Below, piece after piece: positions 1 to 47,009 of a stretch of 53,758 nt of DNA (the first letter of the stretch is position 1; each line of letters starts with the position of its first letter). A program made the position numbers and the translations under genes. The notes under the pieces were generated by a model that saw only the letters and a list, made by a program, of their open reading frames with translations, ran no database searches and had not been told where the DNA came from. The stretch is from a virus (taxonomy: Duplodnaviria; Caudoviricetes): positions 1-53,758 of the IMG/VR virus record IMGVR_UViG_3300035531_000094. One strand, 5' to 3'.

Positions 1-202
1 TTTTCTAATTTTGCTTTTAATTCATCTAAATCCATCGCTCGTATTTTTAAGGTTATTTACTCGTATCAATCTTTGTGCGTGTTCGAGGGCGGCACATACC
101 CTTACATTTTACCGTTGTACGCAAGCGGGTGAAGTGCTTCGATTTTAGTTTTCTGCCAATTTGAAAGAAAAATAAAAAATGCCCCGCCCGCTTCTGTTTT
201 TT

Positions 203-1054
203 TCAAAACAGTTTGAGTTGGCGTTTGTACATATCAAATCTTTGTAGTCCATTATCAAAGTATTCGTTATCAATTTCACAAATATCTAATTCAAATCCTT
301 CCATATCACACGCTATTGCCAAACTCATGCTGCCTCCATTTGTATCTATTATTTTCATGCCTTTGGTTGCATACTTCTGTAAAATGTATCTATAGAGCAT
401 AACAGGTTTTTGCGTTGGGTGAATCCGTTCCTCGTTAAGTTGTTTATTCCCTTGTTGTATAATTGCTTTCATTACATCTTTTCCGCAATAAACACCTTGT
501 ATCATTCCAGCCCAGCGAAAAAACACATTTTCAACTCTTTCAAACATCGAACAATAAGCAATTTCACAATCAGAAAACGAAACGCCTTCTGGTACTAATT
601 TATTCCATATCAACCTGCCACCTTTTAACTGAAAATCCATATAATTTATGCCAAAAATTATTTGATGCTTACTTACTCTTTGGAGTTCGGTTAGCCATTC
701 AATTCCTGCAGGTTCTTTATCCCAATCACCATGTTTATATTTTTTCTTTTTAACATGAAGTGTGCTACCGTTTTTTTGTTTGCATGGTCTATTGTCTTCT
801 TGCGTATAAGCCATTTTTGCAACATTAATTCCATAAGGCGGGTCAACTATTGCAAGGTCGTAATACTTATCGGGTTTAGTTTTCATAAACTCAATATTAT
901 CACATAAATAAAAATTAATTTCCCCACGCTTCGCATTTTTTATTTTTTGTGCTTCGTTGGTAGGTTCGTGCGAACAATCCGCCAGCGTACAACATGCAGT
1001 ATATTCCATGCCTTGCTGTATCTGTTCTTGATGCTTATTTTCTCGTTCAATCAT
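203..1054 (-). CDS. DNA methyltransferase (N6-adenine/N4-cytosine, beta class)
   Basis: DLAIVDPPY catalytic motif, HPTQKP, and a C-terminal SAM-binding motif (IIDTNGGSMS...CEID). Confidence 0.9.
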   Translation of the reverse strand: MIERENKHQEQIQQGMEYTACCTLADCSHEPTNEAQKIKNAKRGEINFYLCDNIEFMKTKPDKYYDLAIVDPPYGINVAKMAYTQEDNRPCKQKNGSTLHVKKKKYKHGDWDKEPAGIEWLTELQRVSKHQIIFGINYMDFQLKGGRLIWNKLVPEGVSFSDCEIAYCSMFERVENVFFRWAGMIQGVYCGKDVMKAIIQQGNKQLNEERIHPTQKPVMLYRYILQKYATKGMKIIDTNGGSMSLAIACDMEGFELDICEIDNEYFDNGLQRFDMYKRQLKLF

Positions 1055-1119
1055 TATCGTAAATTTGAAAGTTAATCACTCGTATTTCGGCACGTAACAT
1101 ACTGCCGTTCGTTATGGGC
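985..1119 (+). repeat. attC-like hairpin 1
   Basis: GCGTACAAC..GCAGTAT..CATGCC / GGCACG..ATACTGC..GTTATGGGC. Confidence 0.75.
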
Positions 1120-1153
1120 AAGCGTAAGAAAACCTCACGCTTGCCCGACAACC

Positions 1154-1390
1154 TTACTCTTTTGTAATGTAGTATTCTTCTTGTATATAAGAATTGTCCA
1201 ACATTTCGATGAACACAAAGTCCATATCTCTTGGCTCTTCGTAATCTTCATCGTTTTCTTTGGCCGATGAAATTGATTTTACCTCAAATGTTGGGCAGCT
1301 TTCATCATCTTCAATAGCTACGTTCATTACTCGTACCTCTAATTCGCTTGGGTACTGTTTCAGTTTTTCAATTAATTCAGATACTAACAT
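1154..1390 (-). CDS. Small acidic hypothetical phage protein
   Basis: ORF 1154..1426; the likelier start is MLVSELIEKL at 1390. Confidence 0.65.
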   Translation of the reverse strand: MLVSELIEKLKQYPSELEVRVMNVAIEDDESCPTFEVKSISSAKENDEDYEEPRDMDFVFIEMLDNSYIQEEYYITKE

Positions 1391-1411
1391 AAAATTGATA
1401 TTAAAACGCCA

Positions 1412-1547
1412 GCCCATAACACACAATATAAAATATACGGGTGTCGGTGCTGTATTGTACGGTACTACCTTTAATTAATTGTCAAATGTATCGGGATAGG
1501 ATACCGCTTTTAATCCCGTACATTTCATATTGTCAAACGTTACCTGC
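1412..1547 (+). repeat. attC-like hairpin 2
   Basis: GCCCATAAC..ACAATAT..TACGGG / CCCGTA..ATATTGT..GTTACCTGC. Confidence 0.75.
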
Positions 1548-2106
1548 AATACCTCTCAACGGATGCGATAGTATCGTGTATAGCCCCGCCATGTGAGAAC
1601 AGTGCAATTCGCTCAACTTCAAAGCCTCTGTTTTTACCCATTGTATTACTGTGGTATCCGAAAGTTATTACAAGTCCATTAGGTTTTAGTATTCTCGGAA
1701 GTTCGTCTTTGAGTTGGCGAAATGGGGAAGCCTTAATCCCATTGTACATTTCCATACTTTTACGATAAGCATAAGGCGGGTCTAACAATATCGTGTTAAA
1801 CCTTTTACCGTCCCATTCTTTAACGAACTGCAATGCGTCCTTGTGATATTCTGCCACCCCATGTTCGCCTAAGTCGTTTCTAACTTCATCAATATCAAGT
1901 TTTGTAATCCCAGCAAATAAATTTAACGTACTACCCTCGCACGTTCTTTCAACCCATTCCCTGATAGGTTTAACACTAAATGTCCATTTATTCAAAGGGC
2001 ATTTAATATAATCAAACATCGGTACAGCAGGTAACACGTTATATAGTGTATTTGCCTCGGTATTTTTAGGTTTTCCTCTTTTATTTTTTGTCATATCGTA
2101 AATCAA
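1540..2106 (-). CDS. Putative adenine DNA methyltransferase (compact)
   Basis: LNLFAG motif I followed by ILLDPPY. Confidence 0.75.
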   Translation of the reverse strand: MIYDMTKNKRGKPKNTEANTLYNVLPAVPMFDYIKCPLNKWTFSVKPIREWVERTCEGSTLNLFAGITKLDIDEVRNDLGEHGVAEYHKDALQFVKEWDGKRFNTILLDPPYAYRKSMEMYNGIKASPFRQLKDELPRILKPNGLVITFGYHSNTMGKNRGFEVERIALFSHGGAIHDTIASVERYCR

Positions 2107-2160
2107 ATTTTGTGTTTCAAATCAGGGGGCAAACACCCCATATAACTATCCGTTACCTGC
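2027..2160 (+). repeat. attC-like hairpin 3 (arms near-identical to hairpin 4)
   Basis: GCAGGTAACACGTTATATAGTGTATTTGCC ... GGCAAACACCCCATATAAC..GTTACCTGC. Confidence 0.8.
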
Positions 2161-2175
2161 AATGCCAGTCCGTGG

Positions 2176-2865
2176 TCAAAACAGGCGTTTCTGCGATGCG
2201 AAAAGTTTAAAACGCTTTTCCTGTTCTTCGAAATAATTTTTATCAATCTCAAATCCTACAAAGTTGAACCCGCCTTTCGCACACGCAATTCTCAATGATC
2301 CACTCCCTACATGGGTATCTAAAATCAAATTGCCTTCGCTCGCATAGTTCATAAGCAGCCAATCATATAATTTAACTGGCTTTTGTGTGGGGTGTATTTT
2401 CATTTCATCGCCTGTTCTTGTGGCTGGCAGTTTATATATCTTTGAAACTGTTTGGAAGCTCATCCACGCAAATTCAGCAGCACTAAAATTTTCAAATGGC
2501 TGCTCTTTATCCCAAATTACAAACCCCCTACTTCCGGGTAAATCAAAGTAATTTCCTCCCCAAATAATTTGATTTTTAGATACCCTGAAAAGTTCGGTGA
2601 AGTAATCAGCACCCGGTTTTATATCCCACCGCTCAACACTGCCATTATTCAACATTCTGTTTTTTAACTTACCTCTGCCATGTGTAGAATCTTTAGGCAT
2701 TCCATAAGGCGGGTCAACTATGGCAAGGTCAAAGCATTTATCTGGAAAGCGTTTTAAACCGTGCATACAATCATCGTTGTACACTATTGAAGGCACAGCA
2801 GGTAACACGTTATATAGTGTATTTGCCGTGGCTTCTTGAACGTCAGTATCTTTGTTTAAGCTCAT
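2176..2865 (-). CDS. DNA methyltransferase (N6-adenine/N4-cytosine, beta class)
   Basis: DLAIVDPPY, HPTQKPV and ILDTHVGSGS motifs; paralogue of 203..1054. Confidence 0.92.
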   Translation of the reverse strand: MSLNKDTDVQEATANTLYNVLPAVPSIVYNDDCMHGLKRFPDKCFDLAIVDPPYGMPKDSTHGRGKLKNRMLNNGSVERWDIKPGADYFTELFRVSKNQIIWGGNYFDLPGSRGFVIWDKEQPFENFSAAEFAWMSFQTVSKIYKLPATRTGDEMKIHPTQKPVKLYDWLLMNYASEGNLILDTHVGSGSLRIACAKGGFNFVGFEIDKNYFEEQEKRFKLFASQKRLF

Positions 2866-2931
2866 ATCTAAATATCAAATTTTGTGTTTCAAATCAGGGG
2901 CAAACACCCCATATAACCATCCGTTAGAAAA
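2798..2931 (+). repeat. attC-like hairpin 4
   Basis: Same arms as 2027-2160; ends in GTTAGAAAA. Confidence 0.8.
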
Positions 2932-2934
2932 GCA

Positions 2935-3159
2935 TTAACCCCATAGCACTCCAGTACCACCGCACGATCTACATGTGTCAGGTGTGGCATCTGAACTTAA
3001 CCATGTTCCGCTTGTCTGATTATAGAAGCCATTTGGAACTATCCCATTTCCGCAGCAAACAGGGCATACATGTGGGGTTAACGACTTTCTAACATCATGT
3101 GATACGTCATCGCCTTGCGGCGGTGTTGTAGTTCTGTCTTTATTCGGTTGATGTAGCAT
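2935..3159 (-). CDS. Small zinc-finger protein (DnaJ-type CxxCxGxG repeats)
   Basis: CPVCCGNG and CRSCGGTG; the likelier start is MLHQ at 3159. Confidence 0.65.
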   Translation of the reverse strand: MLHQPNKDRTTTPPQGDDVSHDVRKSLTPHVCPVCCGNGIVPNGFYNQTSGTWLSSDATPDTCRSCGGTGVLWG

Positions 3160-3223
3160 AATATTTAATTTTTTAGGTTTATTAAAAGCGGCGACGACCG
3201 CATACATGTAATACGTTAGCGTT
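3085..3223 (+). repeat. attC-like hairpin 5
   Basis: CTTTCTAAC..CATGT..TCGCC / GGCGA..ACATG..GTTAGCGTT. Confidence 0.7.
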
Positions 3224-3533
3224 CATTGCTAACAAAATCTATACAAGGCGTAAGTGTGTCTTTATAAAATTTTTGGATAACAACCTTCCCGCCATTTATA
3301 GGAGTCATTTCAAAGTAATATCTATCCTTAAATGAATACACTGGCGTTCCAATTTCAATTTTATTAAATCCGTTATACCCAAAAATTTTATTTAAGTGTC
3401 CTATTAAAATTGGTTGTTCTACCATAGGCAACGAAACGCTAACACCAAATAAATCCAATACTTGCTGTTGTGCGAGTTCAACCGATAGTGTTCCAATTTT
3501 AACTTTGTCTAATATTTCAACTAATTTTTCCAT
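3216..3533 (-). CDS. Hypothetical protein
   Basis: 105-aa ORF; starts in the hairpin 6 loop and stops at the GTTA junction. Confidence 0.65.
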   Translation of the reverse strand: MEKLVEILDKVKIGTLSVELAQQQVLDLFGVSVSLPMVEQPILIGHLNKIFGYNGFNKIEIGTPVYSFKDRYYFEMTPINGGKVVIQKFYKDTLTPCIDFVSNER

Positions 3534-3568
3534 AAATCGTACTGTATTTATTTGTAACCGTTATAAAC
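3435..3568 (+). repeat. attC-like hairpin 6
   Basis: AACGCTAAC..CAAATAAAT / ATTTATTTG..GTTATAAAC. Confidence 0.7.
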
Positions 3569-3586
3569 AACACTACTGAACAGCAT

Positions 3587-3838
3587 TTAATCACCGTCGG
3601 AGGTATTCGGTAATTTATTTTTTCCCGCCCACTTATGCCCTGCGGGGCATTTTGAAAGTGGCATTTTATCAAAGAAATATCCTTTGTATTCAAATGGGAA
3701 TTTGAATGCTTTCAAATAATCATAACTGAAATTCTTATCAGCCAGTTCCGGGTCTTCGCACAAACCCGTTAAGGTGGTGTAAATTGCCACCTCAAACGGA
3801 TTTTCAATGTTTTGTAATTTAATTAGGTGCTTTCTCAT
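3587..3838 (-). CDS. Hypothetical protein
   Basis: 83-aa ORF, last gene of the mini-operon in unit 7. Confidence 0.6.
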   Translation of the reverse strand: MRKHLIKLQNIENPFEVAIYTTLTGLCEDPELADKNFSYDYLKAFKFPFEYKGYFFDKMPLSKCPAGHKWAGKNKLPNTSDGD

Positions 3839-4002
3839 TTTTTTAGATTGTTTTTTTTAATCAGGTTGTTATACTTTTTCTCTGAAATACTCTGAGACAC
3901 ACCTTCAACTTTCAACCAATAGTCAACCTTTCCATTAATTTCTTCGTTCCAGATTTCGCATTTTTGATTTTTGTCGTTCCAAAAAAATATTGAAGTTTTC
4001 AT
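3823..4002 (-). CDS. Small hypothetical protein (59 aa, below ORF-track cutoff)
   Basis: Manual translation MKTSIFFWNDKNQKCEIW...; fills the gap between neighbouring genes. Confidence 0.5.
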
Positions 4003-4018
4003 AATTGTAATTTTTAGA

Positions 4019-4348
4019 TTATAAGCATTTTACGTGATATTGTAATTCTTCTTCTGTTTCTGCTCCGTCAACATCATAAGCATCGAAAAACCATCCGTCA
4101 ATTAATAAGTAGCAGTGAGAAATACCTTCTGAATATTCAGATTCGATAGTTTCATAACCTTCTAATTCATTTTGCATTTCATCAGAAAGATTGTTAACTA
4201 TTTCAACTTCGATTCCCATTTCAGAAAGTGCGTTATATGCTTTTTTCGCAAAAACAGCGCAGTCACCGTTATTAATTTGGTCAGCGTCTCCACCCATTTC
4301 TTCAACTATGCTTTTCAGTGTTTCTTCTATTTGATTCCAGTTTGTCAT
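4019..4348 (-). CDS. Acidic hypothetical protein, possible Cys-His-Asp (papain/transglutaminase-like) fold
   Basis: INNGDCAVFA...SHCYL...FFDA motif spacing. Confidence 0.55.
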   Translation of the reverse strand: MTNWNQIEETLKSIVEEMGGDADQINNGDCAVFAKKAYNALSEMGIEVEIVNNLSDEMQNELEGYETIESEYSEGISHCYLLIDGWFFDAYDVDGAETEEELQYHVKCL

Positions 4349-4527
4349 GATGTTGTATCTTTTTGTTTTATTTCTATACTGTAAAGATACGACATATTTT
4401 TATACTGTGCAAGTTTTTATATAAAAAAATGATGTTTTTTTATACTTTTTTTTCTTTTTCCCTCCCTTCAAAAATAAATTACCAGGGGCGCAGCATTTAA
4501 TGAATGTTGTTTCGGGCTTCCCGTGCA

Positions 4528-4587
4528 GTTTATAACACGGTGTCAAACCGCATTAAAACGACGGTTTACACCTGTCCGTTATAGGGC
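4528..4587 (+). repeat. attC-like hairpin 7 (minimal, about 60 bp)
   Basis: GTTTATAAC AC GGTGT C AAACCG ... CGGTTT ACACC TGTCC GTTATAGGGC. Confidence 0.8.
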
Positions 4588-4851
4588 ATTTAATGGAACC
4601 TTGATTATTTGTTTTTTATTAATTGCAATTAAAGCACATTTCCCTTGTATTGTATTATCAATACTAGTATATGCATAATCAGTTTCTGCATTGTGAATAT
4701 TAAATTCAGTCCTAATCATATTTCTATAACCAACAAATATACCTGTTGTTTCTTTTATTTGAATTACATCCCAATATCGCTCATCATTATCAGTAGTTCT
4801 TACATATTTTACTTTTACTGTAACCTTATCACCTAAATTCAAAGTTTCCAT
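4579..4851 (-). CDS. Hypothetical protein
   Basis: 90-aa ORF stopping at the GTTA junction. Confidence 0.65.
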   Translation of the reverse strand: METLNLGDKVTVKVKYVRTTDNDERYWDVIQIKETTGIFVGYRNMIRTEFNIHNAETDYAYTSIDNTIQGKCALIAINKKQIIKVPLNAL

Positions 4852-4862
4852 AATTTTTACAT

Positions 4863-4961
4863 ATTTATAACAAGCAATATATTTAATTGCCTGTCAAGTT
4901 ACTACTAATTTTAAAAGTATCTGGTATGGCAACTAATCATATTGCCGTACCGTTATAGGGC
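4863..4961 (+). repeat. attC-like hairpin 8
   Basis: TATAAC AA GCAATAT..TTGCC / GGCAA..ATATTGC..GTTATAGGGC. Confidence 0.75.
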
Positions 4962-4963
4962 AT

Positions 4964-5149
4964 TTAAATCAGCCCTAAATCACGTGCTGAATCTTCTGGT
5001 GTCATTCCGTCTAAAGTATCGGAAAAATAAGTATCTAATTTATTTGCGTATTTTTCCGAACGAACTAATTGCTTCCGAAATTCTTTTGCTAATTTCTTGC
5101 CTTCTTCTGTTTTTATGTGTTTTCGTAGTTTGTCAAATTCTTCAATCAT
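4964..5149 (-). CDS. Hypothetical protein
   Basis: 61-aa ORF filling unit 9. Confidence 0.6.
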   Translation of the reverse strand: MIEEFDKLRKHIKTEEGKKLAKEFRKQLVRSEKYANKLDTYFSDTLDGMTPEDSARDLGLI

Positions 5150-5164
5150 AACTCAAGTAAAAAC

Positions 5165-5302
5165 GCCCTATAACCAGCGGTCATAAAACAGCAGGGCATA
5201 TGTGCTGTTCGTACCGTTGTGCATCTATTCATCATTTGTAGTAGGCTGATAGGGTTCTGCGCTTAATCCCTGCCGTTTCATACCGCCAAATCGTTAGCAA
5301 CC
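5165..5302 (+). repeat. attC-like hairpin 9
   Basis: GCCCTATAAC..GCGGT..AAAC.GCAGGG / CCCTGC.GTTT..ACCGC..GTTAGCAACC. Confidence 0.75.
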
Positions 5303-5638
5303 ATTTTGTGCTTTTTTATAGCCTTCCATAAACCCCTCAATCATCCAGTATTTTTCCATGGCTGTAAATCTATCTTCTACGCTTAACGCAATTTCATCCT
5401 CCAGCCATTTGTCAGCAAGTTCACCAATTTCTTTAAATGATAAACGGTCGCTAACATGCGGTATATTGCAGTTGCTTTCGCTTTGTTCAACTCCGTTCGC
5501 TAACTTCTGCTCTAAAAATTCAACATATTCATTACAATAAGACCCTTGTTCACTATGCATATCTCCAATACCAGTATCTTGTAAAAATCTGCATCGTTGG
5601 TGCTTTTCTTCAAATTCTTTTATAAGTTCCGTTTTCAT
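5294..5638 (-). CDS. Hypothetical protein
   Basis: 114-aa ORF; starts in the hairpin 10 loop and stops at the GTTA junction. Confidence 0.65.
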   Translation of the reverse strand: MKTELIKEFEEKHQRCRFLQDTGIGDMHSEQGSYCNEYVEFLEQKLANGVEQSESNCNIPHVSDRLSFKEIGELADKWLEDEIALSVEDRFTAMEKYWMIEGFMEGYKKAQNGC

Positions 5639-5736
5639 AATCGCTCTCTATTTAAGTTGTTTAACATTATTATTTTAATCAAAGTCGGTAGGTTATTCAG
5701 CGGCAACCGACAACATACCGCAGTAATGTTAGCAAC
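5446..5736 (+). repeat. attC-like hairpin 10 (long coding loop)
   Basis: GGTCGCTAAC A TGCGGTAT..GTTGC / GCAAC..ATACCGCA..GTTAGCAAC. Confidence 0.7.
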
Positions 5737-5745
5737 AATAAAAAA

Positions 5746-5925
5746 TTATTCCCTCTGTTGCTCTCTATCGTCCTCTTGTGCCCTATCGTCTATTTGCTCA
5801 GGAAATTGCCTTTCATAAAGCGATTCAGCATATCCCCACCCACGCAAATATTCAAGTCCCGGATCTCCTTTGGGTTCTTTACCTAAATAATAATCGTCCA
5901 TTCCTGTATCAAATTTATTTGACAT
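5746..5925 (-). CDS. Small acidic hypothetical protein (59 aa)
   Basis: Manual translation MSNKFDTGMDDYYLGKEPK...; fills unit 11. Confidence 0.55.
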   Translation of the reverse strand: MSNKFDTGMDDYYLGKEPKGDPGLEYLRGWGYAESLYERQFPEQIDDRAQEDDREQQRE

Positions 5926-5936
5926 AATTTTTAAAA

Positions 5937-6038
5937 GTTGCTAACAAAGGCTATAAACAAAAAGCCTCTGTTAAGGTTAATATTTCAATTTATCTTTTGT
6001 GGTATTGGCTTTCAGTTCATAGCCAAACCGTTGTAACG
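5937..6038 (+). repeat. attC-like hairpin 11
   Basis: GTTGCTAAC..GGCTAT.AAC..AAAGCC / GGCTTT..GTT.ATAGCC..GTTGTAACG. Confidence 0.75.
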
Positions 6039-6142
6039 CATTTTGCGCAGAAATTTTGCGCTAAAAAACAATTCACTTCTTAGCGCAAAACGTACGCTTC
6101 GCCGTTACAACTCTGTGTATAGTGCATAGCTTGTCGGTGCAT

Positions 6143-6346
6143 TTAGTCAACATCAGAGGAGTTATTCGTTTTAATATTTTTCCCTCCCTCTTTGCTTTTT
6201 ACAAAAGCATAAAAACTGCATAAACCTGCTTCGATGCGTTTTTTTGCGGAGCTATTTCTAAAGCTTAGATAATTGCTATATCCGAAGAACTCGGCTATCT
6301 GTTTGCCAGATAAGCCGAGTTCTTTTTTTAGTTGTTTAATGTTCAT
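6143..6346 (-). CDS. Small HTH DNA-binding protein
   Basis: IKQLKKELGLSGKQIAEFFGY is XRE/Cro-like. Confidence 0.65.
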   Translation of the reverse strand: MNIKQLKKELGLSGKQIAEFFGYSNYLSFRNSSAKKRIEAGLCSFYAFVKSKEGGKNIKTNNSSDVD

Positions 6347-6522
6347 TTTTGAAATTGTTTCAAATCAAATCCACTTGGCAATTCAGCAATTAAATCACTT
6401 CCTTTTATGATGCTTTTCATTAATGTATCTGCATCTTTTTTGTTGCCTTCTTTTTCGCCGTTTAAAATTTCAATTGCTGTTGCTACTTCTGAGTTGCTTA
6501 ATTCAATTCTTTGAGTTTCCAT
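6343..6522 (-). CDS. Small hypothetical protein (59 aa)
   Basis: Manual translation METQRIELSNSEVATAIEIL...; ATGA overlap with the HTH gene. Confidence 0.55.
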   Translation of the reverse strand: METQRIELSNSEVATAIEILNGEKEGNKKDADTLMKSIIKGSDLIAELPSGFDLKQFQK

Positions 6523-6574
6523 CTTGTTTTGTCTTAAATAGTTATTCGGGAAATATCCCCCATTGTTTCTAATA

Positions 6575-6628
6575 CAAATGTAAGCATTTAATTACAAACC
6601 ACCAAATAAAGTAAGCAAACAATTACAA
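6575..6628 (-). promoter_or_regulatory. Bacteroidota-type promoter with tandem operator-like repeats
   Basis: Minus-strand TACATTTG matches the -7 TAnnTTTG consensus, with an upstream TTTG. GTAAGCA-N4-ATTACA occurs twice. Confidence 0.6.
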
Positions 6629-6742
6629 TAAAATGTTATAGAACATATAATCCCGCCCTAAAAATATTAAAACTACTCTGGTGCAATTAATCAACAACAG
6701 TGAGGCTACACGCTACGACACCATACACGTGTAGCGTTGTGG

Positions 6743-6928
6743 TCATTGCTCCAAAAACCACGCTCTGATAGTTCTGTAATCGAATTTACCGTCTTTATAA
6801 TCATGTGGTATTTTGCTTTCATAAAACTTGTTAGATAAGTCGCTCCACCACCACGAAGGCAACGAACCGCTAACAAGCAATATAAAACATGCCTTAATTC
6901 TCTGTTTAATTGAAAGTTTGTTTTTCAT
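6743..6928 (-). CDS. Hypothetical protein
   Basis: 61-aa ORF starting in the hairpin 13 loop. Confidence 0.55.
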   Translation of the reverse strand: MKNKLSIKQRIKACFILLVSGSLPSWWWSDLSNKFYESKIPHDYKDGKFDYRTIRAWFLEQ

Positions 6929-7000
6929 ATCGAATTTATTTTTTAATTTATAGTTTCGTGTTTCAAATCAGCACGTTTCATATTGCCGACCGTTATAAGC
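6866..7000 (+). repeat. attC-like hairpin 13 (last in the array)
   Basis: GCTAAC AA GCAATAT.AAAC.TGC / GCA.GTTT.ATATTGC..GTTATAAGC. Confidence 0.75.
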
Positions 7001-7002
7001 CA

Positions 7003-7206
7003 TTAGCCAACCCACAAAGAAAGCTGCTTAGTCTCATTTGTGAATCTTTGGCAACCATCTTCAAAGTAATCTTTTTCAATTTCACATCCGTAAAAATCCA
7101 AACCCATTTCCCACGCTGCGAGTCTACTGCTTTGGCTGCCTAAGTGAGTGTCTAATATTTTGTTTATTGCATCGCTGCCTTCTACTGTGTTCTTTTTTTT
7201 ATTCAT
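7003..7206 (-). pseudogene. C-terminal fragment of a DNA methyltransferase
   Basis: ILDTHLGSQSSRLAA...GCEIEKDYF matches the C-termini of the two beta-class MTases, but DPPY is absent. Confidence 0.75.
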
Positions 7207-7245
7207 TTTTGTAAGTGTTTATTTAAATTTGTTATATTAATATCA

Positions 7246-7575
7246 TTACACCACAATCGGTTCTCCACAAAAAGGGCATTCGCCAATCTGTATTACTTTA
7301 GTTCTATGGAAACTCCACGCACTTGCCATATCAATTTCACTATCCGTCATTGGCGTGTACCAGTTTCCTGAAACTTGACCTGTTATGTCGTAGTATTTTC
7401 CGTTATATTTTGTTATTACATGATTTTTTTCATTTGTAATGTAAGGTTCGCATTCCGGAAAATAAGTCTTCAGGAGTAAAAAAAACTGATAACACGCGCC
7501 GTTCATGTATATCATTTCGATGTACTTGTCGGTTTTTCGAATTGCGTTTATGAACTGTAATATGTTAGTTGTCAT
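7246..7575 (-). CDS. Hypothetical protein with C-terminal CPFCG
   Basis: 109-aa ORF in the operon; GAC...HV...YYDITG motif. Confidence 0.7.
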   Translation of the reverse strand: MTTNILQFINAIRKTDKYIEMIYMNGACYQFFLLLKTYFPECEPYITNEKNHVITKYNGKYYDITGQVSGNWYTPMTDSEIDMASAWSFHRTKVIQIGECPFCGEPIVV

Positions 7576-7578
7576 TTT

Positions 7579-8100
7579 TCAATATCTAAAATTTGTGAAA
7601 TGAATAATTGCCATTGGTTTATTTTGTCGGACTTTAAACCAGTCGCAAAAATCATCAAATGAAAGCCCATCGTTTTTAGCGATTTCTTCCCAGTTAATCA
7701 TTTTCCCATTTATAGGAGCAAAAACAAAGTTTGTAGGGTCTTCGAGTTTTTGAATTCCAACCCCTGATTCATTGTCGAGCCTGGCGAACTCTACCTGCTT
7801 TGACCCGTCTTTTTTGTAGTTATACGGACTGCCGGACCAATAGCGCAAGGATAAATAAGCATTGCCAGCAATAACTTCATCAATCCTTTTTTTCCATAGC
7901 TCGTAGTTGCCCCGTATGGTGTGAATTTTCTCTATTGTGACTTCGGAATATAACTTCCTTTCTTTAATCAGTTCTTGGCTTCCTTCCTTCCACATGGGAG
8001 CTATTTTGTTATAGATTTTCTCGACGAAAAAGGTTGGCTGTCCTTTCTGATTGTGTGTTGCCGGAAATGTCCGGCTTACTGTTAATACGTAAGTTTTCAT
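7579..8100 (-). CDS. Phage protein, possibly ASCH/PUA-like
   Basis: KIHTIR and IAKNDGLSFDDFCDWF motifs. Confidence 0.55.
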   Translation of the reverse strand: MKTYVLTVSRTFPATHNQKGQPTFFVEKIYNKIAPMWKEGSQELIKERKLYSEVTIEKIHTIRGNYELWKKRIDEVIAGNAYLSLRYWSGSPYNYKKDGSKQVEFARLDNESGVGIQKLEDPTNFVFAPINGKMINWEEIAKNDGLSFDDFCDWFKVRQNKPMAIIHFTNFRY

Positions 8101-8110
8101 TGTTGTTGTT

Positions 8111-8782
8111 TTAAATTTTGATTATATCATTACTTCTTTTGCTCTTCGAGTCGCTTAAAACGATAACGTTAAAGCATTCTTTTGCTCTTTCTTCAAGTCG
8201 TGGGTTATTGAGGTTTTTTTCGAGTTTGTTTTGTAAAATTTTGGGAGTGAAGTTTGAGCTTACAAGTAATCCCCTTCGGTTATTATTAATCTCACGATAA
8301 TCCAAAAATTCAACAATAGGAAAAGATGTACGGTCAAGCTTTATCATCCCCATCTCATTTACATCGTTGATTTTAATTGGCATCTTAAAATATTCCGGGT
8401 TTAAATTGAACCATTTTTTATTGAATTCACTAAATGTAAATTCCCGTATTTTTTTTCCAAACTCAGCGTAAAAAGCAACAATGGTTTTTAATATTAAATC
8501 CTTACCAACCCCTTGTGGCGAGCAGAGCCATAAACCTTTTTGTAAATCTCCTTTAAAATCGGGTGAAAGTATGCTCCAATTAAAAACAGAAAGGAGCAAT
8601 GTTTTATCGTTGTTTGATAATTTATATTCCTTACTCCTCTCTAAAACAAGGGATTTATGGATAAACGCAAAGAGTTTCTTTAGATAATAGGCTTCTTCTT
8701 TATTAAAGTTTGAATGTATTTTCTCTCGGTTATCCAGTTTTAAGAGCAATTGCGATCGTATTTTAAGATAGTTATGGTTCAT
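8111..8782 (-). CDS. DnaC/IstB-like P-loop ATPase (helicase loader), degenerate motifs
   Basis: KGLWLCSPQGVGKD Walker A-like motif and SSNF; directly follows the initiator gene. Confidence 0.65.
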   Translation of the reverse strand: MNHNYLKIRSQLLLKLDNREKIHSNFNKEEAYYLKKLFAFIHKSLVLERSKEYKLSNNDKTLLLSVFNWSILSPDFKGDLQKGLWLCSPQGVGKDLILKTIVAFYAEFGKKIREFTFSEFNKKWFNLNPEYFKMPIKINDVNEMGMIKLDRTSFPIVEFLDYREINNNRRGLLVSSNFTPKILQNKLEKNLNNPRLEERAKECFNVIVLSDSKSKRSNDIIKI

Positions 8783-9513
8783 ATTTCAAGTAGATTTTTA
8801 GATTTATTGGACGGATGGCTTTTAATTTCATTATTTATCCATTCTGCTTTTAATCCCTGCCAGCTTTTTTCAGCGGCAATTTTTACACATTCATTAGCCG
8901 GGACACCCGAAATTTCAATTTGCTTTTTAATGCCATTGAAAGCCGTTTTTGTATTTGCGGCTTTTTTCTTTGCCCGTACTTTTATCCAATCTTCAGCGAT
9001 TTGTTTTTCTACACCTAAATCAATAATTGAATTCTTAAAATTAAATTGAGTATCATTTTTATCTAAAATATTTCTGAGTTCTAATATTTGTTTATTTGTT
9101 AATTGTTCTTTGTTTAATTGTTTAATTATACTATCAATGCTTTGTACAGTGCTTTCACCTTGCTTTGTACTGTGCTTTATTAGAGCTTTATCAAGTGCTT
9201 TATCAGGTGCTTTATCAAAATATGATAGGGCAATGATATTTGATGAATATTGATTTTTACTTTTTTGGATGAGTTTTATAAAACCAAAATCAATTAGTTC
9301 GTTGAGTGTTTTGATATAGGTATTATAAGAATGGATGCCAATTGCTTCTTTTGCCATTGAAGTAGGCAGGCCGAACTTTTCCTTCCACCCCAACCTGTTG
9401 CAATGCTCTATGCAAAAAAAATACAGCGCGGTATGGCTTGGATTTATTTTTTCTGGATTTTCAAAACAATAGTCAAACCACTTACGGCTCAATGTATAGC
9501 TATTTATGTTCAT
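8779..9513 (-). CDS. Phage replication initiator (N-terminal winged-HTH)
   Basis: N-terminal HTH-like region, low-complexity linker, and a C-terminal W..VRAKKKA...WQGLKAEW domain; paired with the ATPase. Confidence 0.65.
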   Translation of the reverse strand: MNINSYTLSRKWFDYCFENPEKINPSHTALYFFCIEHCNRLGWKEKFGLPTSMAKEAIGIHSYNTYIKTLNELIDFGFIKLIQKSKNQYSSNIIALSYFDKAPDKALDKALIKHSTKQGESTVQSIDSIIKQLNKEQLTNKQILELRNILDKNDTQFNFKNSIIDLGVEKQIAEDWIKVRAKKKAANTKTAFNGIKKQIEISGVPANECVKIAAEKSWQGLKAEWINNEIKSHPSNKSKNLLEI

Positions 9514-24850: not shown

Positions 24851-27800
24851 ATGCAAGACAACAATCAAAGCCAGTTTAGCACATTAGTTAAAGATTTGTA
24901 TTCTAAGTATAGTCCCGAAAAGGTTGATAAACTTGATGATGAAACGTTAAGCAACATCGAAAAAACCTATAACGGGGATTATAAGACCTTTGTGTCTGAT
25001 TATTACAAAAAGAACAGACCTGATAAGGTTGACCAATTGAATGATGAGACTTATGCTAATATTGCTAAGACTTACGGTTTTTCAGATGGTAATAAACAGT
25101 CCGGAACTTCCGGGCAACCACAAGGACAAAATGAGGGCACAAATGAAAAAAAGAAAAGTGGCTTTGGTCGAGAAATGTTGCTGCAATCAGCAAGTGGTTT
25201 GGGAGACCAGGTATACCGAGGTATCTTAAATATTCCCGATAATGCTTTAAGAATAGCTTCTGTTGCTACAAATCCAATTGCAAGGCTTATTGGGCTACCT
25301 GAATACAACCCCGGTGATATAAATAAGGTTACGGGAATTGAAAATATTGATGAGTATATAGCCAACGAAACAGAGAAATATCAAAAAGAGGTAAAAGAGA
25401 TAAACCCTCAGATTGAAGCTGGTGTTATGGACTCAATGAAAAAAGGAGATTGGAATACTGGGTTTAGAAACCTTGCCAGTGGTCTCGCACATTCTTCAAT
25501 GCCATCCCTTCTTATGATGGCTGCACCTATGGCTGGTGCTTCTGCCGGAGGACAGATTGCGGCTTCAACGGGTATGTTTGGCTCTGCCAGATTAAAAGAG
25601 CTTGACGAAACAATGCCAGAATTAAGCGAGGAGCAAAAACTTATTGCAGCTAATATCAACGGGGCATTAGAGGGTATATTTGAAACGTACTTTGGTTCTG
25701 GTGCTGTTGGTGAATCATTGGTCAAAAACATAATCAAGGAGCAGGGTGTAAAGGCAGGAAAGGAAACAGTTAAAAAAGGCATGCGCCAAATGTTTTCTGA
25801 TGCGCTTACCAAAAACCCTGCGTTAGCACCATTGGGAGAAATGTATGAGGAAATGGGTACGCAGGTGGCTCAGAACCTCACAGACAAACTTACAGGTGTT
25901 AATCCTGATATTGAAGTTACGGACGGTTTGTGGGATGCCGGGTTATTAGGTTTAGCTGGTGGTGCTACCCACGGAGGAGCAATTAAAGGGGCACAATATT
26001 TGTCACAGAAAGTAGGGAAAAAGAGGGCAGAAAGCCAAGCAAGACAGACCATCCAACAAAACCTTGCCCCCATCACCCACAAGGACGGAAACGTCCACCA
26101 AATTACCAACGAACAAGACGAAATGTTTTTTGTCGTTGATGAAACAGACGGTGGGATGCTCACTGTTAAAGATATTGCCGGTAATGAAAAGATTGTACCT
26201 GCTGATGAATTTCGTACACCTGAGGTTAAATCTGTTCAAGAGATAACAGAACAAGAACTCGCAGCATGGGAGCAGGAGTATACATTACAGGAACAAATGA
26301 AAGCCGAACAACAGGCTATTCAGGAGAAATATTCTAATGTGCCGGAGCAATGGGAAAAGGACGGTGTTACGTACCGTTTTGTCAATGACCCACAAAACAT
26401 AACACCTGATGGCAGTATAGTTGTAGAAGCTACCGACCAGATGGGGAATGTTACACCAAAAGAATTTACACAAGAGGAGATTAACAGCGTTATCCAAGAG
26501 CAAAAGGAAGCGGCACAGGCAGAGCAAGAAGAGGCTGCTAAATTACAAGAGGAACAGCAAGGCGAACAACCCGAGGAGCAGGAAGTAATAGAGAAACCAA
26601 AGCAGACTTTTAAGATTGACAATAAAGAGTTTGAAATGGAACAGGCAGAGGATGGTTCATTTATCCTCAATGCCGGGCAAAAAGACCTTAAGACCATTCA
26701 GGAAAACACCGATACGGACAATTTCGATGTTGAACTGATTACCGAGGACGTACCAGCTGACCCAAATGTACCTGCATTTGTAAAACAAAAGCCAAAGCAG
26801 AATGTTAAAGGGGTTAAAATAACACCAAAACAAAAGCAAAATGACACACCACCATCGAGCGAACAAAACACAATGCCACAATATCGCTATCTTGACAAAC
26901 AAATAAGCGACAAGAAAGCAAATGCTTTAATCGACATGGCAGAGAGTGTTGATGACCTGTATGGCTTTGAATTTGAGAATGACGAAAAACTGAGCAAAAA
27001 GATTGAAAAGAAATTTCCTGAGCTGAACCCGGCATATGAGGTAAACGGGCAAAAGGTTGACCGGGAATATGTCGAGAATGCCATTGAGTTTGCAAACACC
27101 CCCGAAAAGCTATCCAAAATAAACGTCAGGAATGACCAGGAGCTACAATCTTTGATAGAAGAGAAAGAAGCTGAGTTGCGTGTACCAAATGCAAAAGAAA
27201 CAAAAGAACGTGCCTTAAAAGCAGAGCCACGGACATTGCGCGAACTCTTGTTACAATACTTCGTGAATGGTGGACGGGTTAACACCAATGATGTCAAAAT
27301 GGACATTACAGGCAAATCTGTGAAAGAAAACCAAAGCAAGTTAGGCTTTGTCTCTAATAATGCACCTTCTATCGACCAATTACAGGAACGTTTGTTGCCG
27401 GGCACTGCTTTTGAGCAAGCGATGGACGACCCGACCAATTTCAGGAATGAAGTTATTGACGTATTGAGTTCTTATCAAGGCAGGGCAGGGATGCTTGAAG
27501 ATATCAGCGAACTTGGTATGACTGAAGATCAACGGTATGATGCGGATATGGCTAAATTCATGCCGGAGGTGAAAGTAGAACGTGTACAGGACGGTAATAA
27601 AGTGAAGTTTGTTTCAAACAACGACATGAACGGTGTTGAGGTTGATGCCAACGATTATAACGAAGTGGCACAGACAGAAACAACCCCGGAAGAGGAACAA
27701 TTTGCCGCTTTACTTCCTGACGAATATTACTTACCTTTACTTGAAAGTGAGGATAATGCCCCATCGATGCAAGATATCGAGGCATATGAACTTTTATATA

Positions 27801-30800
27801 ATCAACTTGAAAATGAAAGACAACAATCAGAAAACATTAACGCCAGAGAAGAAGGTGCAACTGTACCGGAAAATCAAGAAAATGGCGAAACTGGGACAAG
27901 TGCTCAGGAAGAACAGCCAGAAGAAGTAACCCCCCTCCTGCAACCACAGGAAACCACCGGTGAAAGTGAAGTAGCCGGTGGTACTTCTGAACAAGACAAG
28001 TATGAAAATTCCATTTTATACAAGGCGCGGAATGGTGACAAAGAGGCTCAACAGAGGATGCAGGATTATGGTTTAGAATGGGATGAAAATCCAGTTAAAC
28101 ATAGGCAGATAGGAGAAAAAGAAGCGGAAAAACTACTTAATGGAGAACAAATAAAGCCTGAGAGGAACGGTTCTTACGTAGATATAAGTGATTTTCCCGC
28201 ATACTGGGGACAGGACGCAAAATTTCCATATAAGGTAACATTCAAACAAAAGCCGGAATTCGACTCACAGAGAACTTCATCAATGGAGGGTGGAAGAGTT
28301 GAAGAAAAGAATAAACAAGCAGGAGAATATGGTCTGGTCGATGGATATACATTAGATGATGTTGCTGCCGTTGAAAAAATGAACGAGAATGGCGAATGGG
28401 AAGTGATATATGATTCAAAAAATACAACTTCTGAAAAACAAAACACTCAAGAGTTAACCGAATCCCAAACACAACAACCTAAAACAGAGCAAAAAAGCGA
28501 AAATCGCAAACGGGAGAGTTTACCAAATAATGAAACTTCATACAATGAAAATGAAGATTTGTTTACCAATATAGGGCGGGTTGTAAGTGAAAAAGAAAAA
28601 AAACAAGGTTCCAATAAAGGAATAAAAGAGACTATTAGGCATATGACCATTAATGGCGGTAAAGATGTTGGGATTGATAAAACATTAAAACATAAAGGTT
28701 ATATGTTTGCACAAACTAATCTACCACTCGGTGGTAGCAAAGATTATCAGACTCATGTATGGGATGGTAATAATTGGAAACGTATTGGCAATATAAAGTT
28801 ATTAAAAAAAGATATAGATAAAATTTATAAAAGGGCAATTGAAAGGGAATTAATTAAACCCTTTAATGAAAAAAACCGTAACTTAGCCCAAGATAATGAT
28901 GTACGCTATAAGAAAATATCAACCGAAACAGCCAGTGAAGATAATTCACCCGGACGGGAGCAGTCTGGAGTACAGGAACGGGACGTTCGTCCTGACCGAG
29001 CAACAAGCAATGTACCAAAACCCGGCACAATCAAAAGACAAGCATACGACCACGTTAAAAGACTTGTCGATAATCACCGAATCAAAGAATTTGATGCTGA
29101 ATACTTTGATAACCGTTTCGATGAATTAAACCGTAAATTTCCAAACAGAAATATCACAGGTATTGCAGACCTCATATATGAAGGCTTGCCTGATGTTGAT
29201 ATGTCTGATAATGGCGTGAGGTTCCGTAAAAACTCACCACAGGGTTTCTACTCAACCGTTGAAAATGCACTCGACAAAATAAACCAAGAAAAAGGGACAG
29301 TTGCACAGTTTGAGAAAATGCTCCTTAAGAATGGGGCAAAACAAACTGAACTCGACTGGATGAACTTTAAAGACCATTTTGCTGACACCGGGGAAAAGGT
29401 GACAAAACAGGATATTCAGGAATGGATTGACAATAATAGGATTGAGGTAGAGGAAGTAAAAAGAGAAAAGTATGAGCCACTCTCTGAAGAAGAAATTACT
29501 AATATAAAACAAAATATTGAAATTGAATCAGATATCGAAACCAGGGACCAATTTGGTATTGATGAACCAATTGAGCTTTGGGATAGATATTATCAAGGAC
29601 CCGTTGATGAAGAAACATTAAATAAAATTGCAGAAAAACAAGGGTACGAAGATTATGATGACTTATTTAATGCAATGGATTCATATTACGAAAATCTTGT
29701 ACAAGAAAAAATTAATAACTTAGAAAAAGGAGACGATACCAGATTTTCCCAATATCAGCTCCCTGGTGGAGAAAATTACAAAGAGTTTGTTTTGACAATG
29801 CCAGGACAGATTGAACCATACAAACCGGATAATCTTCATTTTACTGAAGAAGGAGGAGGAACAGCAGTAGCATGGGTAAGAGCTAAAGACTATAATTCAG
29901 ATAATGAAAAAGTGCTGTTTTTAGAAGAAGTCCAAAGTAAAAGGGCACAGGAAGGTAAGAAGAATGGGTTTAATAGCCTCGATGGTTATTCGCAAGAGCA
30001 AAAAGAACTCATAAAACTTGGTTTAAAATGGAATAATCAAAGAACGACAGAAGAAGAAAATAGGTTTAGAGAATTAGATGATAAATATCCAGACACATTC
30101 GATGAGTGGTTGGATAGAACCGGGGATATTCCCGACATGCCCTTCAAACAAACTCCACAATGGGTAAACCTTGCATTAAGACGCATGATGCGATATGCTG
30201 CAGAAAACGGTTATGACAGGATTGCATGGACACCCGGTGAAGTACAGGCTGATAGATATGATTTGAGCAAGCAAATTGAAAGTATCAGATATAGTAATGA
30301 TAAATACTTATCTGCATTTGATAAAAACGGCAATAAAGTTATTGATCAATTTGCAGAAGAACACCAATTGCCTGACATTATAGGGAAAGAAGCCACCGAC
30401 AAACTTTTATCACAAGATTCAGATAGTTTTGGAAGAGGATTGCAAAATGAAGACCTCAAAGTAGGCGGAGAAGGCATGAAAACCTTTTACGACAAAATCA
30501 TCCCCAATCAGTTCAAAAAGATAACCAAAAAATTTGACACAAAGGTTGAGCCCACTACCGTTGACCTGAATGGGGAGATAAACCTCGACCTTGCCACCGA
30601 TGCTATTTCTAATTTGCCATCAGACGGTCAACTTGAAGTGCTATCTATCCCTGTTACCGATAAAATGAGAGAATCGGTAATGGAAGGAATACCATTGTAT
30701 AAAAGGACGCAAAAGCCAAAAGAAATAAAGCCTGAAAACAGGGAAATAGCCGATGAATTGACAAAGACACAAATGCGGGCACCAAATGCCTTGCCGCTTG

Positions 30801-46938: not shown

Positions 46939-46966
46939 TCAGGTTAGTTTAGTTAGGTTTTAATCG

Positions 46967-46998
46967 AAGCCCTGTCCGGTAATGGGCGGGGCTTTTTT
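46967..46998 (+). terminator. Intrinsic terminator
   Basis: AAGCCCTGTCC-ggtaat-GGGCGGGGCTT followed by a T run. Confidence 0.75.
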
Positions 46999-47009
46999 AA
47001 TCATATGAC

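Follow-up and report, generated by a model that had tools for sequence, protein, structure and literature searches.

Inverted arms and G-rich cores bracket variable genes in unrelated phages: possible DNA-level cargo slots in an early accessory region

The early accessory regions of phages hold counter-defence genes, and the movement of these genes between unrelated phages is poorly understood. Palindrome-targeting insertion sequences, such as IS1397 in repetitive extragenic palindromic (REP) units, end up with the palindrome halves flanking the insert and a short direct duplication inside them, and the attC sites of integrons are known to host nested elements. In T4-type phages, the short conserved regulatory motifs termed PeSL are reported to flank non-essential genes of the hyperplastic early regions and to mediate the shuffling of modules between phages (PMC2839356). 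Here, a virus record of IMG/VR (IMGVR_UViG_3300035531_000094; Duplodnaviria, Caudoviricetes) was analysed over its whole length of 53,758 bp; this linear sequence, estimated to be 85% complete, is called the window below. Three units in its early accessory region (units 1, 7, and 12) consist of cargo genes bracketed by two perfectly complementary arms and two G-rich cores. The same brackets contained different genes in unrelated phages, and therefore they look like swappable cargo slots. We tentatively read them as a family of structure-defined slots that act at the DNA level and whose paired ends enable cargo exchange, and we give this reading a little less than an even chance.

All three units had the same order of parts. 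On the coding strand, which is the minus strand of the window, the outer direct repeat was followed by 1–7 nt, the 5′ arm, a purine-rich or G-rich core, and the cargo. The 3′ side continued with a small hairpin (stem of 6–7 bp), a core of 11–13 nt (AAG..GGG, in the form AAGN plus GGGMGGG), the 3′ arm, 11–26 nt, the second outer direct repeat, and a cassette-border motif, again in 3/3 units. An earlier note on this DNA had described the layout of direct repeat, inverted repeat, and core, and every coordinate was confirmed in the sequence. It had not mentioned the small hairpins that adjoin the left core on its inner side in each unit (194–211, 3635–3650, and 6193–6209) or the additional outer inverted repeat of units 1 and 7, which includes the border motif. 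Also missed were the location of the right arm and right core of unit 1 within the methyltransferase open reading frame (ORF) 203–1054 and the difference between the two cores of a unit.

The window had four inverted repeats that were perfect over at least 14 nt and had their arms 100–2000 nt apart, compared with a mean of 0.33 and a maximum of 2 in one hundred shuffles in 500-nt blocks. The three units accounted for 3/4 of them, and the fourth (2205–2218 / 2746–2759) was without a G/C-rich core. The motif CCCKCCC was present seven times (4.06 expected). Five of these sites were located within 0–3 nt of the inner end of an arm, at three of the four inverted repeats; the sixth formed the 3′ half of an ordinary terminator (46960–47000), and the seventh was inside a giant ORF. 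Chance or low complexity was ruled out by the shuffles and by interruptions of the A/T runs that matched exactly between both arms. A transposon with terminal inverted repeats and target duplication at the arms was also rejected, because no duplication abuts the arms.

The pattern was not confined to this genome. Eighteen copies with nine arm sequences were found, extending to about 12 other viral, metagenome, or metagenome-assembled genome (MAG) contigs (designated here by L numbers), some of them belonging to three further phage genomes, G001 (36.6 kb, 87% complete), G002 (41.7 kb, 95% complete), and G003 (54.9 kb, 100% complete). The arms were 10–17 nt long and 409–2418 nt apart. They were perfectly complementary in all 18 copies, all pairs were Watson-Crick, and the orientation relative to the cargo coding strand was constant (18/18). 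A perfect hairpin of at least 6 bp ended 11–13 nt before the 3′ arm in 15/18 copies, and its stems differed in sequence yet stayed paired; such a hairpin was present anywhere in 3.1% of 5000 random 34-nt windows. The copies without it were the unit-12-like element of G002 (4 bp), unit B of G003, and L113. A MAFFT alignment of 14 3′ modules was out of register for pair counting, and the stems were taken from a script table.

The cargos comprised four kinds of DNA methyltransferase, modules of a predicted promoter, a small gene, and a helix-turn-helix gene, and small ORFs. Genome G003 carried three units in tandem (arms of 15, 13, and 17 nt), one of which held a cytosine-5 methyltransferase. Other methyltransferase loci had arms of 10, 11, and 13 nt (L041/L042, L051/L033, and L045/L049), all of which paired perfectly, and in three related virus contigs (L101–L103) a Dam-like gene was enclosed by a pair of 12-nt arms. 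Homologues of the window's methyltransferase were found at 64 distinct loci, 7 of which had perfect 5′/3′ complementarity over at least 10 nt. In units 7 and 12, the 5′ arm preceded a promoter-like leader; in unit 1 it lay within a leader ORF, in L041 and L051 in codons 5–8, and in L103 and unit C of G003 just before the start codon. The arms thus marked variable DNA regardless of expression signals.

The four phage genomes, compared in full, had almost no proteins in common. With tblastn, 131 window ORFs gave one match in G001, five in G002, and one in G003, and the five in G002 were three overlapping frames of one shared methyltransferase locus plus two weak matches. The cassette ends were nevertheless 93–100% identical in G001 and G002 and 75–83% identical in G003, where 43 nt covering the 5′ arm and core matched without a difference.

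The features of unit 1 were as follows.

114–128 / 979–993: outer inverted repeat, 13/15 matching, including the cassette-border motif.
134–141 and 949–956: outer direct repeat GTGCTTCG, with the motif CGAAG(C/A)AC retained on both sides in L113 and L014.
168–182, minus strand: 3′ arm of 15 nt, T-rich on the coding strand, the perfect complement of 933–947.
183–193, minus strand: 3′ G-rich core, CCCGCCCGCTTC at 183, AAGCGGGCGGG on the coding strand.
194–211, minus strand: subterminal hairpin (stem of 7 bp, loop of 4 nt), holding the methyltransferase stop codon.
203–1054, minus strand: cargo ORF of 283 aa with an N6/N4 DNA methyltransferase body.
922–932, minus strand: 5′ core, CCCCACGCTTC at 922, GAAGCGTGGGG on the coding strand.
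933–947, minus strand: 5′ arm, A-rich on the coding strand, inside ORF 203–1054.

The unit 1 arm was found in G002, G003, L014, L112, L113, and L114. The window, G002, G003, L014, L112, and L113 shared arms identical at 15/15 positions, with 609–2418 nt between them and 4–5 different cargos: methyltransferase A or B, a multi-gene cargo of 2.4 kb, or a pair of small ORFs. Unit 1 of G002 was 99.8–100% identical to that of the window, L014 held a diverged copy of methyltransferase A, and G003 had the same leader fused in frame to a different methyltransferase. The cargo of L112 was 2418 nt long (ORFs of 349 and 74 aa), that of L113 consisted of the two small ORFs, and L114 had the 3′ half of the bracket only. 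The earlier note had suggested a search for the same flanks with other payloads, and these were found for unit 1 as just described, for the unit 12 site in G002, where the arms were different and again paired, and for unit 7 in two further contigs. Neither outcome that the note had named as refuting its interpretation was thus observed, which favours that interpretation in part.

The borders of the unit 1 cargo lay at the cores or no more than a few bases away. ORF 203–1054 is an in-frame fusion of a 35-aa leader and the arm- and core-encoded KIKNAKRG to the methyltransferase body, and its homologues mostly begin matching at residue 36–52. DNA homology between the window and G003 stopped at 922, the inner edge of the 5′ core, and restarted at 219, just before the hairpin. 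In the window, G003, and L112, the end of the conserved sequence directly adjoined the G run of the 5′ core; in L113 it fell inside the 5′ core, which was altered, and the hairpin stem was degenerate. Conservation restarted at the hairpin in the window, G003, L112, and L113, and the hairpin stem covaried in L112, L041, and L051. The conserved frames of the unit exceeded 100 nt on each side. The 35-aa leader peptide (948–1054, with homologues in G003, L112, L113, and L014) carried a Cys-rich motif, ..YTACCTLADC.., and was fused to two different methyltransferases and one non-methyltransferase protein, and stood alone in one contig variant.

The features of unit 7 were as follows.

3561–3569 / 4528–4536: outer inverted repeat, 9/9 matching.
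3581–3591 and 4491–4501: outer direct repeat CAGCATTTAAT.
3587–4348, minus strand: cargo of three small ORFs, 3587–3838, 3835–4002, and 4019–4348.
3609–3622, minus strand: 3′ arm of 14 nt, the perfect complement of 4470–4483, identical in G001 and L009.
3623–3650, minus strand: 3′ core and hairpin, AAGTGGGCGGGA on the coding strand, with CCCGCCC at 3624 and the 6-bp hairpin at 3635–3650.
4349–4459, minus strand: AT-rich leader with promoter-like TTGC-N19-TATCTTTAC, about 97% identical in L009.
4460–4469 and 4470–4483, minus strand: 5′ core (GAAGGGAGGG on the coding strand, CCCTCCC at 4460) and 5′ arm.

None of the three cargo ORFs had a Pfam or PHROG match. The 3′ core and hairpin encode part of the C-terminal tail of ORF 3587–3838, and distant homologues of this protein ended about 20 residues earlier, without the tail, arm, or core. 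In G001, 93% DNA identity to the window was limited to 3555–3838 and 4345–4583, ending at CCGTT on both sides, and the promoter-proximal ORFs 4019–4348 and 3835–4002 were replaced by two other ORFs. The metagenome contig L009 had the same arms, cores, leader, and hairpin around a single different upstream gene, and its last gene had 76% protein identity to that of unit 7. The overall identity between the window and L009 was 81–83%, and the 7 nt beside the 5′ arm matched at 3/7 positions, whereas the arms were perfect. The hairpin after the AACGG border of this cassette (4537–4580) showed a double compensatory change from the window to L009, AAACCG/CGGTTT to AAATTG/CAATTT.

The features of unit 12 were as follows.

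6136–6156 and 6680–6700: outer direct repeat of 21 nt, 17/21 identical, with a homologous repeat around the unit-12-like element of G002.
6143–6522, minus strand: cargo of a 59-aa ORF (6343–6522) and a 67-aa ORF (6143–6346).
6168–6181, minus strand: 3′ arm of 14 nt, the perfect complement of 6660–6673.
6182–6192 and 6193–6209, minus strand: 3′ core (AAGAGGGAGGG on the coding strand, CCCTCCC at 6182) and hairpin with a 7-bp stem.
6523–6673, minus strand: leader with promoter-like TTTG-N20-TACATTTG, 5′ core AGGGCGGG (6652–6659, CCCGCCC at 6652), and 5′ arm (6660–6673).

Outside the arms, units 7 and 12 were homologous on both sides. The last ORF of unit 7 and that of unit 12, the 67-aa ORF, were otherwise unrelated but ended alike, in a tail (..GKN...N.S.D.D*) that core, arm, and flank encode. 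Judged by eye, the 67-aa ORF looks like a helix-turn-helix protein, and it had no family match. The leader boxes of both units are putative promoters and resemble the Bacteroides promoter consensus. The unit-12-like element of G002 had a downstream flank 74% identical to that of the window. Its arms formed a 10-nt pair, where the window has one of 14 nt, and it had G-rich cores, the 4-bp hairpin, two other genes with this tail, and two palindromic operator-like boxes in a promoter-like leader. In G002 (L013, ~430–530), the palindrome CCACAAATGTGG occurred twice around the promoter-like boxes and was followed by a small gene and a helix-turn-helix-like gene, a layout that resembles anti-defence operons with an autorepressor. 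The flank pattern of unit 12 gave four matches, three of which were chance matches inside an unrelated G+C-rich gene, and none of the 34 candidate stretches for its first protein in viral contigs was confirmed. A G-quadruplex of four G triplets was rejected as a common element; it is possible in units 7 and 12 and not in unit 1, G002, or unit B of G003.

Perfect pairing of differing arms, varied cargos that border the 5′ core, and nesting thus characterized the recurrent anatomy. Slots acting at the DNA level are favoured because the arms mark variable DNA, their pairing is exactly Watson-Crick and sharp-ended, the cargo borders lie near the core, and the phages are unrelated. The arms look functional rather than like relics, because they are identical within a bracket type and differ yet pair across related brackets. 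In such a slot, the arms would pair in single-stranded or extruded DNA and thereby join the two like-oriented cores. Strand exchange at or beside the cores, the presumed crossover point, would then insert, lose, or swap the cargo, and an emptied slot would leave arm-core-arm. The contig joint at 4491 and the unsplit A-run, G-core, and T-run beside the unit 1 leader, both described below for other samples, count in favour of this reading. The slots are nested in larger cassettes, which are bounded by CCGTT / AACGG and pass as whole blocks from one phage to another, unrelated one. The acting enzyme might be a host factor or the short tyrosine recombinase that is present in some of these phages.

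Several observations weigh against this reading. The two cores differed within every unit of the window and in most other copies. Two arm polarities, A-run first or T-run first, occurred in the family, which the slots as proposed do not account for. Expression-like features were present: the co-orientation of the cargo was strict, the stop codon lay in the hairpin of many units, and the 5′ core took the position of a ribosome-binding site (L103 and unit C of G003) or encoded KRG(G) in the methyltransferases. The 15-mers that form the unit 1 arms also flank 46 terminator-like palindromes of bacterial genomes. Exact empty-site patterns for units 7 and 12 had no match in viral contigs, an unsplit form of unit 1 had an A-run and a T-run that matched imperfectly, and no excision circles or junctions were seen in assembled contigs, from which assembly drops rare forms. 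No recombinase was found among the ORFs scanned with Pfam and PHROGs, and neither PF00589 nor PF00239 matched in the window, in G001, or in G003, which carries three units; with PF00589, 14/14 control genomes were positive. The sample comprised nine arm types and was partly retrieved using the pattern itself. Most extra copies were retrieved with queries from the window's own cassettes.

The unsplit forms bear on another explanation, in which the cargo was once inserted into the middle of an AT-rich palindrome, such as a bidirectional terminator, with a short duplication of the core, and the arms are now functionless relics. We consider this improbable. It would account for the arms outside and the like-oriented cores inside, and unsplit forms do exist. 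The evidence from other samples consists of the assembled contigs of four runs, and gaps in their cover of the stretch in runs X3–X5 were not counted as evidence. In contigs of three runs, the unit 1 leader and A-run were followed by one G-rich core, a T run, and then the upstream region of another gene, with no methyltransferase. The empty arm-core-arm site predicted earlier was in this sense found for unit 1; its arms were imperfect, and in viral contigs it had no exact counterpart for the other two units. Unit 1 arms joined by 1–30 nt were present at 46 places in bacterial genomes, and the unit 7 arms had one unsplit occurrence, around a 12-nt AT loop in a Polaribacter MAG. Most of the 46 sites, however, had an ordinary complementary stem-loop between the arms, in the form of a bidirectional terminator. 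AT-rich palindromes with unit 1 or unit 7 arms therefore exist, but without the G-rich core. The differing arms of related methyltransferase cassettes could likewise reflect re-insertion into different palindromes.

Other properties of the ends do not fit relics. The arms were perfect in 18/18 copies while the adjoining outside sequence diverged (3/7 between the window and L009), no decayed arms were seen, and the conserved hairpin 11–13 nt from the arm would not be predicted. Because the two cores of a unit were not identical, there was no fresh duplication. Identical cores on both sides were found solely in unit B of G003 (AAGCAAGGG), and the core-to-core difference of unit 7 was the same in its three copies. 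The conserved ends extended past the cores: one side added the hairpin, the other about 20 nt. The earlier note's proposal of site-specific insertion with duplication of the core was accordingly not supported by the differing cores, the extent of the conserved ends, the apparently functional arms, the lack of a recombinase in 3/4 genomes, the imperfect arms of the unsplit form, or the lack of exact empty sites in viral contigs.

The main rival to the DNA-level slots places the pairing in RNA. The arms would pair within one transcript, either the cargo mRNA or an early read-through transcript, as a panhandle that sets its processing, stability, or translation. The ends would be expression modules, one combining the start region with an arm and the other the stop, hairpin, core, and arm, and would double as recombination homology. 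We regard this as rather unlikely, although it would explain the expression-like features. The hairpin and the G-rich cores were on the cargo coding strand in 18/18 copies, and methyltransferase units would have both arms in the expected mRNA, in codons near the start and in a 3′ untranslated stretch. The stop codons within hairpins, the 5′ cores placed like ribosome-binding sites in L103 and unit C of G003, and the identity of the unit 1 arms with the A-run/T-run flanks of the 46 bacterial palindromes would also fit. Because the arms differ between related methyltransferase cassettes yet pair, selection on pairing would be needed. The frames of more than 100 nt per side of unit 1 would suffice for homologous exchange, and a RecT-like annealing protein is encoded. 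The PeSL of T4-type phages are a precedent (PMC2839356).

An RNA clasp is nevertheless at odds with the position of the arms. In units 7 and 12, the 5′ arm is about 95–130 nt upstream of the promoter-like boxes, and therefore the cargo's own transcript would probably lack it. Across the family, the 5′ arm lay anywhere from about −190 to +110 with respect to the start codon. There were zero G-U pairs in about 118 distinct arm base pairs, and homologous exchange alone fails to explain 4–5 unrelated cargos bordered within a few bases of the same core. An earlier asymmetry of G-U pairs, taken as a hint of RNA, was withdrawn, as wobble had been scored on one strand only. No Rfam family was matched at gathering score across the whole window, and one weak match to a miRNA model (E 0.71) was obtained in 1–8000.

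The 3′ modules folded like their shuffles (z −1.9 to +0.3; 7/7 folded), which also speaks against an RNA clasp. Because these local folds were no more stable than shuffles, the modules are not classical intrinsic terminators, a candidate that was further excluded by a terminator scan of 1–9000, in which no site was flagged at the unit ends. The ordinary terminators of the phage (38846–38872 and 46960–47000) had GGGAG/CTCCC or GCCCTGTCC/GGGCGGGGC stems with A and T runs, and the G-rich half of such a stem is similar to the cores of the brackets.

Inversion of the cargo by an invertase, with the arms as crossover sites and the cargo switched on or off, was also considered and is highly improbable. 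Sharply bounded, perfect inverted repeats of 10–17 bp around genes that include methyltransferases would suit it, as would the presence of a recombinase in some of these phages. G002 (L093) encodes a 267-aa tyrosine recombinase (PF00589 and PF13495; 12476–13279, minus strand) at the downstream end of its cassette array. A relative with 57% identity directly followed the unit in L033, and others (~30%) were found in L102, G004, and G006. Of the four genomes compared, G002 thus had a co-occurring recombinase of the kind that the earlier note had suggested looking for, and none was found in the window, G001, or the complete G003. No copy was flipped (0/18), however, and no strand-changing joint was found in the contigs of four runs. 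The arms shared no consensus beyond AT richness, and the like-oriented cores and the one-sided hairpin would have no role in inversion. A palindromic element, GTTATATA...TATATAAC, precedes the G002 recombinase.

The slots lie within an outer layer of cassettes. Most intergenic stretches carried the motif TAAATGC..TAACGG..TATG on the coding strand, with a hairpin after it. Blocks shared at 93–100% between phages with almost no common genes ended at CCGTT / AACGG; this was the case in G001 and G002, and contig joints were located at the CCGTT sites 116, 2816/3559, and 6032. A further contig joint was located exactly at 4491, in the outer repeat of unit 7, where the new neighbour was a different cassette. 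These block ends and joints bear out the nesting of the bracket between direct repeats inside a cassette that had been described earlier. In a general test of pairing between neighbouring intergenic regions, which omitted arms inside called ORFs, no signal was obtained (Mann-Whitney p 0.33). When the test was anchored at AACGG, partners of 8–14 bp were found at 8 intergenic sites, each of them marginal (control fraction 0.01–0.07).

Many cassettes had their own 8–14 bp pairing, GTTAxxxxx ... xxxxxTAAC|GG, around the gene (116/985–993, 2154/2798–2806, 3562/4528–4536, 4954/5161–5174, and 5727–5749/5924–5946), a topology that recalls integron cassettes. An ORF-less structured element at 6027–6111, which may be a small RNA or a recombination site, was also present in L100–L104 and G002 and contained a conserved CGAAG(G/C)GTACG. 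Its outer stem, GTTGTAACG / CGTTACAAC, covaried in five other virus contigs, and its inner stem was TTTTGCGC / GCGCAAAA. Two methyltransferase genes shared a nearly identical stretch of 36 nt in their N-terminal coding parts (2021–2056 and 2792–2827), including a CGTTAT site that formed the joint in a contig of run X5.

The genes from position 1 to about 22,000 of the window are carried on the minus strand. Pfam and PHROG searches identified a row of small genes in 1–7500, including three N6/N4 DNA methyltransferases, and the rest of the phage encoded SbcC-like, RecT-like, NinG-like, metallo-beta-lactamase-fold, portal, and tail proteins and a 3984-aa ORF. Next to this ORF (24851–36805) are the portal gene and the gene of an internal virion protein resembling T7 gp14. 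The sequence of 1–7500 was present in oil-field metagenome runs from several studies. Two of the MAG contigs were labelled Bacteroidales and Lutibacter, and a Bacteroidota host for these phages is weakly supported. A megablast search of 1–9000 against named phages gave nothing beyond 38-nt methyltransferase matches. Full-text literature searches returned no description of this bracket in the titles and abstracts, among which PeSL and general hotspot papers surfaced.

Because the brackets enclose four kinds of DNA methyltransferase, selection by host restriction is indicated. A recognisable bracket of this kind would offer a search handle for new accessory or anti-defence cargo in metagenomes and possibly a new mechanism of recombination or long-range regulation. 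If the exchange is precise, the slots would be a natural landing pad for engineering such phages.

Compared with described systems, the unit 1 arms resemble a bidirectional terminator, being the A-run plus TGC and GCA plus T-run 15-mers of the 46 bacterial palindromes, and the window's own terminators have GGGCGGGGC or GGGAG followed by a T run. Unlike the halves of a terminator, however, the inner cores of a unit share polarity and cannot pair, and its arms are 409–2418 nt apart. Insertions of the IS1397 type have the same layout of arm, core, cargo, core, and arm. They differ from the units, in which the cargo had no transposase (methyltransferases or no match), the inner edges had no inverted repeat, no identical duplication was present in the window, and the arms differed between units while being conserved.

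The likeness to integron attC sites covers several features. Promoter-less or self-contained cargo stands in arrays in both systems, its orientation is strict, and pairing rather than sequence defines a boundary that varies by cassette (nine arm sequences here, complementary in 18/18 copies). The outer CCGTT cassettes, moreover, pair their first bases with their own far end. However, attC is one contiguous hairpin at one end of a cassette, whereas the stem halves of the units flank the cargo at the distances given above. The arms are AT runs without the RYYYAAC / GTTRRRY boxes of attC, 3/4 genomes had no tyrosine recombinase that could correspond to IntI, and the units reside in phage genomes. 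Taken further, phages of Bacteroidota-like hosts would carry a two-layer, integron-like cassette system without an element-encoded recombinase. Its outer cassettes would end at CCGTT sites with pairing particular to each cassette, and in its inner slots the split stem, the two G-rich cores, and the hairpin would make up a folded recombination site, at which an undescribed host or structure-specific activity lets anti-defence genes (methyltransferases and modules of a small gene and a helix-turn-helix gene) hop precisely between unrelated phages; we consider this extension unlikely.

PeSL are the best analogue for the outer CCGTT layer and for the reading of the brackets as expression modules. 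In both cases, the breakpoints of exchange coincide with the motif, here at the outer CCGTT joints and at or near the cores where the cargo borders lie. A PeSL is a promoter and a local stem-loop, repeated in direct orientation; the outer layer here has a repeated AACGG...TATG and a hairpin, which may or may not act as promoter and terminator. The brackets, in contrast, have two unlike ends that pair across the cargo, with G-rich cores and a hairpin, and their exchange is between phages with almost no common genes.

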